A stretch of DNA of 64,000 nt from an uncultured Clostridium sp. (GTDB lineage Bacteria > Bacillota > Clostridia > TANB77 > CAG-508): the NCBI GenBank assembly GCA_948468045.1, contig CAOKGO010000006.1:3372-67371 (forward strand), given 5' to 3'. This document shows, one piece after another, positions 33,313 through 33,429 of the stretch; within the stretch, counting starts at the first letter, position 1, and the number at the start of each line of letters is the position of its first letter. The notes beneath the pieces are model-generated. The model saw only the letters and a list, made by a program, of their open reading frames with translations. It was not told where the DNA came from and did no database searches. The translations under genes were made by a program, and so were the position numbers.

Positions 33313-33429
33313 TGAGACAATAGGGACAGGTCTTATTTGTCTCATGTTTTTTGTCGATTTTTGTAACATTTATCAATTTTTATTTGATTTGTATTTATGA
33401 GACAATTAAGACCTGTCCCTACTGTCTCA
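33313..33429. repeat. Family B inverted-repeat element (about 117 bp; 33-nt arms, each itself a hairpin)
   Basis: tgagacaatagggacaggtcttatttgtctcat ...60 nt... atgagacaattaagacctgtccctactgtctca. Confidence 0.8.

Follow-up and report, generated by a model that had tools for sequence, protein, structure and literature searches.

Short inverted-repeat elements at gene ends in uncultured gut Clostridia: a probable REP/REPIN-type family whose arms flank a Y1 transposase gene

Most analyses of REPIN-RAYT-type systems have dealt with Proteobacteria. Here we report on family B, a set of short inverted-repeat elements that sit at gene ends in a stretch of 64,000 nt (27.5% GC) from an uncultured Clostridium sp.; the whole stretch is referred to as the window. 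Our reference points for repetitive extragenic palindromes (REPs), REPINs and REP-associated tyrosine transposases (RAYTs) are Nunvar 2010 (PMC2817692), Bertels & Rainey 2011 (PMC3116915) and the TnpA_REP protein of E. coli (PDB 4ER8). RAYTs have been reported from Clostridia (Group 1), with a weak association with repeats (Bertels 2017, PMC5581495). In TIRtrons, the flanking inverted repeats of the TIRYT transposases share the motif GGGGWSAS, and the termini of GTAG repeats often supply TAG stop codons (Di Nocera 2013, PMC3733652). TIRYT has been equated with subclass 2.1 of the Y1 TnpA_REP proteins, and no REP-like sequences or hairpins were found beside subclass 2.1 genes (Quentin 2018, PMC6006769). 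TIRtrons/TIRYT and subclass 2.1 are probably the same.

We consider family B to be a REP/REPIN-type non-autonomous mobile element of a RAYT/TIRYT-class Y1 system, with a probability of about 0.8. It is a known kind of element, encountered here in a little-studied bacterial group. An initial annotation, made from the sequence alone, had described the copies as REP-like elements at gene ends that resemble miniature inverted-repeat transposable elements (MITEs). This description is supported, and it is strengthened by a Y1 transposase gene that is flanked by the same arms in conspecific and related genomes. From knowledge of the transposase family and from the anatomy of the elements we infer that their mobility is driven by the transposase.

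The core TAGGGACAGGTCT occurs seven times in the window (33321+, 33409-, 37987+, 38077-, 59593+, 59650-, 61572-), compared to 0.35 expected copies, and none of 100 shuffles reached seven. A profile hidden Markov model (107 arms) returned exactly seven window arms (E <= 3e-13) and no weaker match. The consensus of the 32-nt arm is TGAGACA-RTAGGGACAGGTCT-NNNN-TGTCTCA. In the regular-expression (regex) census, an arm consists of TGAGACA, R-TAGGGACAGGTCT, four variable nt and TGTCTCA, usually with a T as the next base. The stem of 7-8 bp is formed by TGAGACA(A) and (T)TGTCTCA. Six of the window arms make up three inverted doublets with their heads pointing outward, the partner arms being 94-95% complementary, and the seventh is a solo arm. 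The features are as follows, with TTG denoting a start codon proposed by the open reading frame (ORF) caller.

33313-33429, element 1, 117 nt in total, spacer of 53 nt
33313..33344, plus strand, left arm of element 1, head outward: TGAGACAATAGGGACAGGTCTTATTTGTCTCA
33318..33320, minus strand, spurious TTG in this left arm, which lengthens the called ORF 33102..33320
33345..33397, spacer of element 1, 53 nt, AT-rich, with full-length inverted homology to the spacer of element 2
33398..33429, minus strand, right arm of element 1, head 3 nt from the typA/bipA stop
37979-38097, element 2, 119 nt in total, spacer of 55 nt
37979..38010, plus strand, left arm of element 2, which holds the spurious TTG 37984-37986
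38011..38065, spacer of element 2, 55 nt
38066..38097, minus strand, right arm of element 2, with the rlmN stop 11 nt beyond the arm
59585-59670, element 3, 86 nt in total, spacer of 22 nt
59585..59616, plus strand, left arm of element 3; its TAG at 59593-59595 is the stop of the DUF4912 gene, with the residues MRQ added
59617..59638, spacer of element 3, 22 nt
59639..59670, minus strand, right arm of element 3, followed by TTTTAAACAAAGGAG (ribosome-binding site) and by the start codon (ATG, 59694) of the GH57 branching-enzyme gene
61561..61592, minus strand, solo arm: TGAGACAGTAGGGACAGGTCTCATTTGTATCA; the TGA with which it begins, at 61590-61592, is the pheT stop

The three full copies and one single arm that had been proposed are thus recovered both by the regex and by the model. 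The hairpin character of the arms and their mutual inversion are likewise confirmed. The solo arm is real, but it lies at 61561-61592 and does not start at 61569 as first given.

Further loci were gathered by exact match to a 20-mer of the arm, with one genome scanned per species. This resulted in 61 loci from about 17 assemblies, all of them from uncultured gut Clostridia (Clostridium sp. CAG:343, represented by locus L001, and related metagenome-assembled genomes [MAGs]). Together with the window they contain 117 arms according to the regex census, arranged as 36 doublets with spacers of 2-131 nt and 45 solo arms. MAG JAAWEC01, from which locus L007 originates, is conspecific with the window: it has the same elements, and the sequence on either side of elements 1 and 2 shows 98-99.75% identity.

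In five species (L002, L007, L008, L016, and L056) and in L069, two inverted, head-out arms about 1 kb apart enclose an ORF of 246-285 aa which matches Pfam Y1_Tnp (E 1e-11 to 1e-13). The C-terminus of the encoded protein (residues ~225-257) matches the helix-turn-helix (HTH) families HTH_7, HTH_8, HTH_23, and HTH_28. Its best NCBIfam model is the REP-associated tyrosine transposase (REP_Tyr_transpos; 66-73 bits), compared to 19-31 bits for the IS200 model, and its sole sequence match in the PDB is E. coli TnpA_REP (4ER8, E 0.009). An AlphaFold model based on 27 homologues (pLDDT 82) has a helical C-terminal domain; its top fold match is again 4ER8 (E 2.9e-5, TM 0.68 on the target), with the transposases of IS608, ISDra2, and IS200 behind. 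The HUH motif (N-H-x-H) and the tyrosine of Y-I-H-x-N-P are invariant in these 27 homologues. At least 831 members of this protein family are found in metagenomes, and nearly all are about 250 aa long.

The Y1 gene is always located between recD2 and comFC, in homologues of 55-99% identity, and among the fetched loci there is one such locus per assembly. This single syntenic site is as expected for domesticated RAYTs (Bertels 2017, PMC5581495), and by its sequence context the gene appears to be single-copy, vertically inherited, and domesticated. recD2 ends ...YKMRQ, its stop being the TAG of the left arm, while the Y1 gene has the right-arm TGA as its stop. A solo arm without the Y1 gene is found between recD2 and comFC in L058 (MAG CANONT01, 4543-4574); it is the only exact arm match in the CANONT01 genome, and this site looks like a case of transposase loss. 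More distant Y1 homologues (55-57% identity) have inverted repeats with GGGGACAC, GGGGACAG (L065), or GGGGACGG (L067).

We thus propose the following scheme. The 32-nt arm would be the terminal inverted repeat (TIR) of the single-copy Y1 (HUH) transposase with its C-terminal HTH at the recD2-comFC site. By analogy to IS200/IS605 and to TnpA_REP, the enzyme would recognise the arms as folded single-stranded DNA and would copy them in trans, mostly as head-out arm-spacer-arm doublets, which could fold into a long hairpin of ~33 bp or more. In this compact genome with 27% GC, copies persist almost exclusively in the short gap that separates a stop codon from the ribosome-binding site of the following gene. 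The arm head starts with TGAGACAGTAG and offers a TGA in frame 1 and a TAG in frame 3; insertions that clip a gene end are therefore closed at once. The inserted arm becomes the stop codon of the gene, sometimes with the residues MRQ added. Doublets that are transcribed inside operons would form very stable intercistronic RNA hairpins. Transcription within operons in this form is the most likely fate of the elements, and an effect on mRNA stability, processing, or translation may follow.

Several observations point to the doublet as the unit. In 18 of the 36 doublets, the two arms have the same four variable nt, whereas 2.1 such doublets are expected when partners are shuffled (maximum of 9 in 10,000 shuffles); in our own reading of the census, this identity holds at 17 of 28 independent sites. 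In 29 doublets, arm-arm pairing amounts to 94.4% and collapses when the register is slid. Double-sided changes number 40, compared to 16.8 +/- 2.9 in shuffles, none of which (0/500) reached 40. Covariation within the arm is uninformative either way, because the 7-bp stem never varies. Folded as single-stranded DNA, a single arm reaches -4.3 to -4.8 kcal/mol and a doublet -28 to -38 kcal/mol (z -10 to -14). Spacers are homologous across non-orthologous doublets, with scores of 21-26.5 compared to a null maximum of 17. In addition to elements 1 and 2 of the window, this is seen for L032/L052, for L022/L048, and for both doublets of L026. A motif common to all spacers was not found, and sharing is confined to subfamilies.

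At orthologous sites, spacers change fast by indels: they measure 50 and 28 nt in L025 and L033, where the flanks are 98% identical, and 18 and 2 nt in L019 and L059. This latter site, compared across five species, carries a doublet in L019 and L059, a doublet with a 128-nt spacer in L020, a solo arm in L047, and a truncated arm in L039. The doublet of L060 corresponds to 18 unrelated bases in L049 and to a different palindrome in L003, and family B sites of one species are occupied by other hairpin repeats in other species. Among the 13 arms sampled from MAG CASUIT01 (L008, L017, L030, L037, L040, and L055), 12 have the variable segment TTT(T), even where JAAWEC01 has a doublet with different variable bases at the orthologous site, which indicates genome-specific homogenisation or replacement of arms. 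The arms of JAAWEC01 show many variants of this segment, CATT being the commonest. Target-site duplications were not found around the 36 doublets, many of which have flanks that prolong the palindrome as an A-run or T-run.

The relation of the arms to gene ends is close. Open frames of 80 or more codons run into 38 arm heads. The stop is the TGA at arm positions 1-3 in 20 cases and the TAG at positions 9-11 in 15 cases, with one stop at position 22 and two read-throughs. For 20 further heads, the stop lies 0-35 nt upstream, mostly at a distance of no more than 5 nt. The scarcity of read-through fits selection against long arm-encoded tails. The opposite flank of a doublet is typically AAAGGAGG, which is the ribosome-binding site of the next gene. 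With a stop abutting the head and a ribosome-binding site on the far flank, the elements therefore occupy the gap between these two signals. Among 68 classifiable units, 56 are located between co-directional, 8 between convergent, and 4 between divergent genes (background: 292, 39, and 35).

A location mostly inside genes had been named as an observation that would speak against elements of this type; only 4 of 81 units lie within long ORFs, all being solo arms. In L052 (3874-3904), a dnaE-type gene for DNA polymerase III alpha contains a 31-nt family B arm in frame, within the part that codes for the HHH_6 domain; the arm encodes ..ETGGTGLNVS... The same dnaE codon position carries an in-frame palindrome of the GGGGACGG family at ~3925-3972 of L009, from a MAG conspecific with the window.

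The initial annotation had proposed that the arms donate the stop codons of rlmN, the DUF4912 gene, and pheT. Over the window and the loci together such donation is systematic, 35 of the 38 ORFs that enter an arm head being terminated by its TGA or TAG. Within the window it holds for two of the three genes. The DUF4912 ORF (58744-59595) ends ...NPSSMRQ at the TAG within the arm; its counterparts end ...NPSS in CAG:343, with their own TAA and with only the distal arm present, and ...NPSSMMRQ in JAAWEC01. The product of pheT (61590-63992, minus strand) has the C-terminus ...GATLRK, and bases 1-3 of the solo arm form the TGA stop. For rlmN (38109-39113, minus strand), the TAG at 38087-38089 is out of frame, and the protein ends ...DIDAACRST at a TAG at 38109-38111, outside the arm. 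The rlmN orthologue of CAG:343 (L001) ends ...AACGQLRRKNLRQ, with the TAG of the arm as its stop. Relative to L001, the window species has a 1-nt indel near the gene end (38109-38125, minus strand) which moved the stop out of the arm and turned the conserved C-terminus ...AACGQL... into ...AACRST. A sequencing error does not explain this indel, because seven independent contigs encode the identical RlmN protein. Next to element 1, typA/bipA has its stop TAA at 33433-33435 (minus strand).

The view that the TTG starts called at 33320 and 37986 come from the arms is correct. They represent the CAA of TGAGACAA read on the opposite strand and are a mechanical artefact of the arm sequence. The real starts are likely ATG 33297-33299 for the gene beside element 1, preceded by the ribosome-binding site GAGGG, and ATG 37963-37965 for the gene beside element 2, preceded by GGAG. 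The gene downstream of element 1 codes for an O-methyltransferase (Methyltransf_3; 32711-33299, minus strand) and is represented by two overlapping ORFs (33102-33299 and 32711-33169), the split being a frameshift or a pseudogene.

A number of points weigh against the assignment to a REP/REPIN-type system. The Y1 gene was not found in the 64-kb window, and the link is made via the conspecific MAG and related species. With 66-73 bits, the Y1 protein falls below the curated NCBIfam cut-off of 80 bits for RAYTs. The conserved tetranucleotide GTAG/ATAG is located at arm positions 8-11, between the halves of the stem, whereas canonical REPs have their GTAG at the 5' foot of the palindrome. Retrieval by an exact 20-mer means that conservation of arm positions 2-21 is partly built in; the tail, the doublet geometry, and the gene context are free of this selection effect. 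The arm-arm covariation can also be explained by local inverted duplication or gene conversion without selection for a hairpin. Insertion polymorphism within the species was not found by exact look-ups of the GH57, PheT, and RlmN proteins: all conspecific contigs carry the elements. They can be considered fixed in the window species, since the matching contigs all have the same gene spacing. The comparison of strains for empty sites, as suggested initially, thus yielded none in the window species and one between species (L049 vs. L060). There, the difference consists of 17-18 unrelated nt and shows no clean excision or insertion junction, so that a target site cannot be defined.

The fixation of the elements in all conspecific contigs would be expected if they were host regulatory modules, i.e. 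terminators, attenuators, or hairpins that stabilise or process mRNA, maintained by host selection and with an incidental or historical link to the transposase. We consider this unlikely. Such modules would account for the direct contact of arm heads with gene 3' ends, seen in roughly every second arm, for the folding of full elements as RNA (-53 to -63 kcal/mol, z -11 to -14), and for arms that stay near the consensus at orthologous sites although the flanks are only 83-93% identical between species. Two window arms were called terminator-like, and at least five T are found in the 8 nt past the tail for 50% of the arms but for only 21% of the intergenic background. The distribution of these T-runs, however, does not fit. 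The units are mainly (82%) located between co-directional genes, having the next ribosome-binding site immediately downstream of a full hairpin without a T-run. Considering all loci, a T-run follows 36% of the arms that are read in sense from a gene end and 66% of the other arms, which is the opposite of what a terminator requires; in the window, it follows one of four sense-read arms, namely the rlmN-proximal one. The "transcription-terminator-type" role envisaged in the initial annotation is thus not supported as a rule. Moreover, the single-arm stem has 7-9 bp with a loop of 14-16 nt, while a conventional terminator of the window (61278-61305, following the GH57 gene) has 11 bp and a 6-nt loop. 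No Rfam family matches the elements: the only match at gathering score in the window is a tRNA, and at the E-value level there are sub-threshold matches of plant miRNA and HIV long-hairpin families to element 2. Sister species hold different repeat families or nothing at the same sites. Co-option of some copies by the host is possible and is compatible with a mobile element of REPIN type.

Two further explanations concern the origin of the copies. Classical MITEs, which are internally deleted derivatives of DDE-type insertion sequences moved via their TIRs, would share with family B the short length (66-194 nt), the inverted termini around a variable AT-rich interior, and the copying of whole units to new sites. 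They are nevertheless a very improbable source, given that the 36 doublets lack target-site duplications, that solo arms are as frequent as doublets, and that no arm was found in viral contigs. Also, across 0.5 Mb of loci no gene other than the Y1 gene was found enclosed by a pair of arms, and this gene has a fixed syntenic location and is present once per sampled assembly. Even less credible, in our view, is a multiplication by host use, without transposition, of binding sites for an HTH regulator or a nucleoid protein. The invariant core GGGACAGG, the HTH of the Y1 protein, and the motif GGGAC[AG]G common to three hairpin families of the window would suit such sites. Their location at gene 3' ends or between cistrons would not, as promoters are not the preferred position and divergent intergenic regions account for only 4 of 68 units. 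In addition, homology spans 32 nt plus spacers, exceeding what an operator needs, and the arms flank a transposase gene. A phage origin was rejected, as none of 2.9 million viral contigs contains the 20-mer of the arm.

Two other hairpin families of the window have related cores. One of them, TTTGGGCATAATTGGGACAGGCACTGA(A/G)TAGCCC, forms two direct tandem pairs (35312-35385 and 42711-42792) and has the same GGGACAGG core as family B on a different stem; in L069, copies of it (976, 1019) precede the Y1 gene by about 2.3 kb. The other is a palindromic family, ATAGGATTTGGGGACGGCCCCA(T/A)AATCCTA with the core GGGGACGG, located at 20276-20370, 21870-21901, 52436-52467, and 55215-55246. The motif GGGAC[AG][GC] occurs at 15 window sites, compared to 0.7 expected, and all 15 are within these three intergenic families. 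As a speculative extension, about which we are rather doubtful, one domesticated TIRYT-type Y1 enzyme might read GGGAC[AG]G in the loop of a hairpin with any stem and thereby maintain several hairpin-repeat populations, family B and the two others, whose copies would be kept as intercistronic RNA hairpins of the host. If true, the HTH-bearing subclass, which was thought to be devoid of REPs, would drive true REPIN populations in low-GC Firmicutes.

Additional repeats were noticed in the window. A short repeat with a GGGGACG core, TGTCCTATTGGGGACGTTTCTTT(C/T)G(G/C)GACATTTTTATGTAA, is found at 26817-26871 and 27750-27790 and may be a fourth related family. Composite repeats of ~100-130 nt are located at 1676-1851, 7724-7902, 35384-35679, 43776-43953, 45073-45204, and 61299-61492. 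They contain palindromes such as TATTATAGGAAAGTTCTCTGAACTTCCTATAATA and GAACAAAGACG.GCATGAAAAG...CATGCCTC, and in L069 one copy separates the left arm from the Y1 gene. At 40686-40781 there is a perfect tandem duplication of 48 nt, TATTTGTTCATTAGGCTTTTTGTTATTCGCACCCTAATTAGCGAAAC(A/G) x2.

For annotation, it matters that in the MAGs of these gut Clostridia the arms systematically determine or displace gene boundaries, by TGA and TAG stops, MRQ tails, and false TTG starts. They also break assemblies: two contigs with exactly the rlmN of the window break off within ~40 nt of this gene, right ahead of the repeat. We thus advise that annotation pipelines mask them. From a wider perspective, an HTH-bearing, TIRYT-like Y1 protein is tied to dense hairpin repeats in uncultured Clostridia with low GC and small genomes, which offers a second, distant setting for studying the persistence of domesticated transposases and their repeats. 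GGGAC[AG]G, common to three repeat families, is a candidate recognition motif.

Compared to REPIN-RAYT systems, family B shares the short palindromic repeats, which are dispersed and mostly extragenic, and the inverted doublets, which fold into one long hairpin and multiply as whole units. It also shares the inverted repeats around a single-copy, vertically inherited Y1 HUH gene, the G/ATAG tetranucleotide, and arm variants that can be genome-specific, as in CASUIT01. TnpA_REP is the best match of its Y1 protein by sequence and by fold. In contrast to these systems, the Y1 protein is ~100 aa longer and has a C-terminal HTH, the hairpin of the single arm is weak, and the hosts are uncultured gut Clostridia with 27% GC rather than Proteobacteria.

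Two features, the HTH extension and the core motif, suggest an affiliation with the TIRYT/TIRtron class. The extension is similar to HTH_23, HTH_28, and HTH_7, as in TIRYT, and the arms contain a motif of GGGGWSAS type (GGGACAGG; GGGGACAG in a minority): most arms have AGGGACAGG, which matches 7 of the 8 positions, and a minority has TGGGGACAGG, which is a full match. As with TIRYT, the repeats also occur elsewhere as singles and dimers. The supply of TAG stops by GTAG-repeat termini and the presence of repeats in replication genes, here the in-frame dnaE arm of L052, have parallels in the TIRYT study (PMC3733652), the main text of which does not mention Clostridia. Family B differs from subclass 2.1 as described by Quentin 2018 (PMC6006769) in that its TIR is itself a hairpin and carries GTAG/ATAG, and from TIRYT in its high density, with seven arms in 64 kb.

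With respect to position, there is also a likeness to the bacterial interspersed mosaic elements (BIMEs) and REPs of E. coli, the Correia elements of Neisseria, and the Rickettsia palindromic elements (RPEs). These are likewise small palindromes between cistrons or over gene ends which alter annotated gene boundaries or add residues. Their sequences are different, and the mobilising enzymes of Correia elements and RPEs are different or unknown. On the sequence features considered here, we thus file family B as REPIN-like in its behaviour and TIRYT-like in its protein and motif, the latter being a likeness to the subclass rather than a phylogenetic placement.

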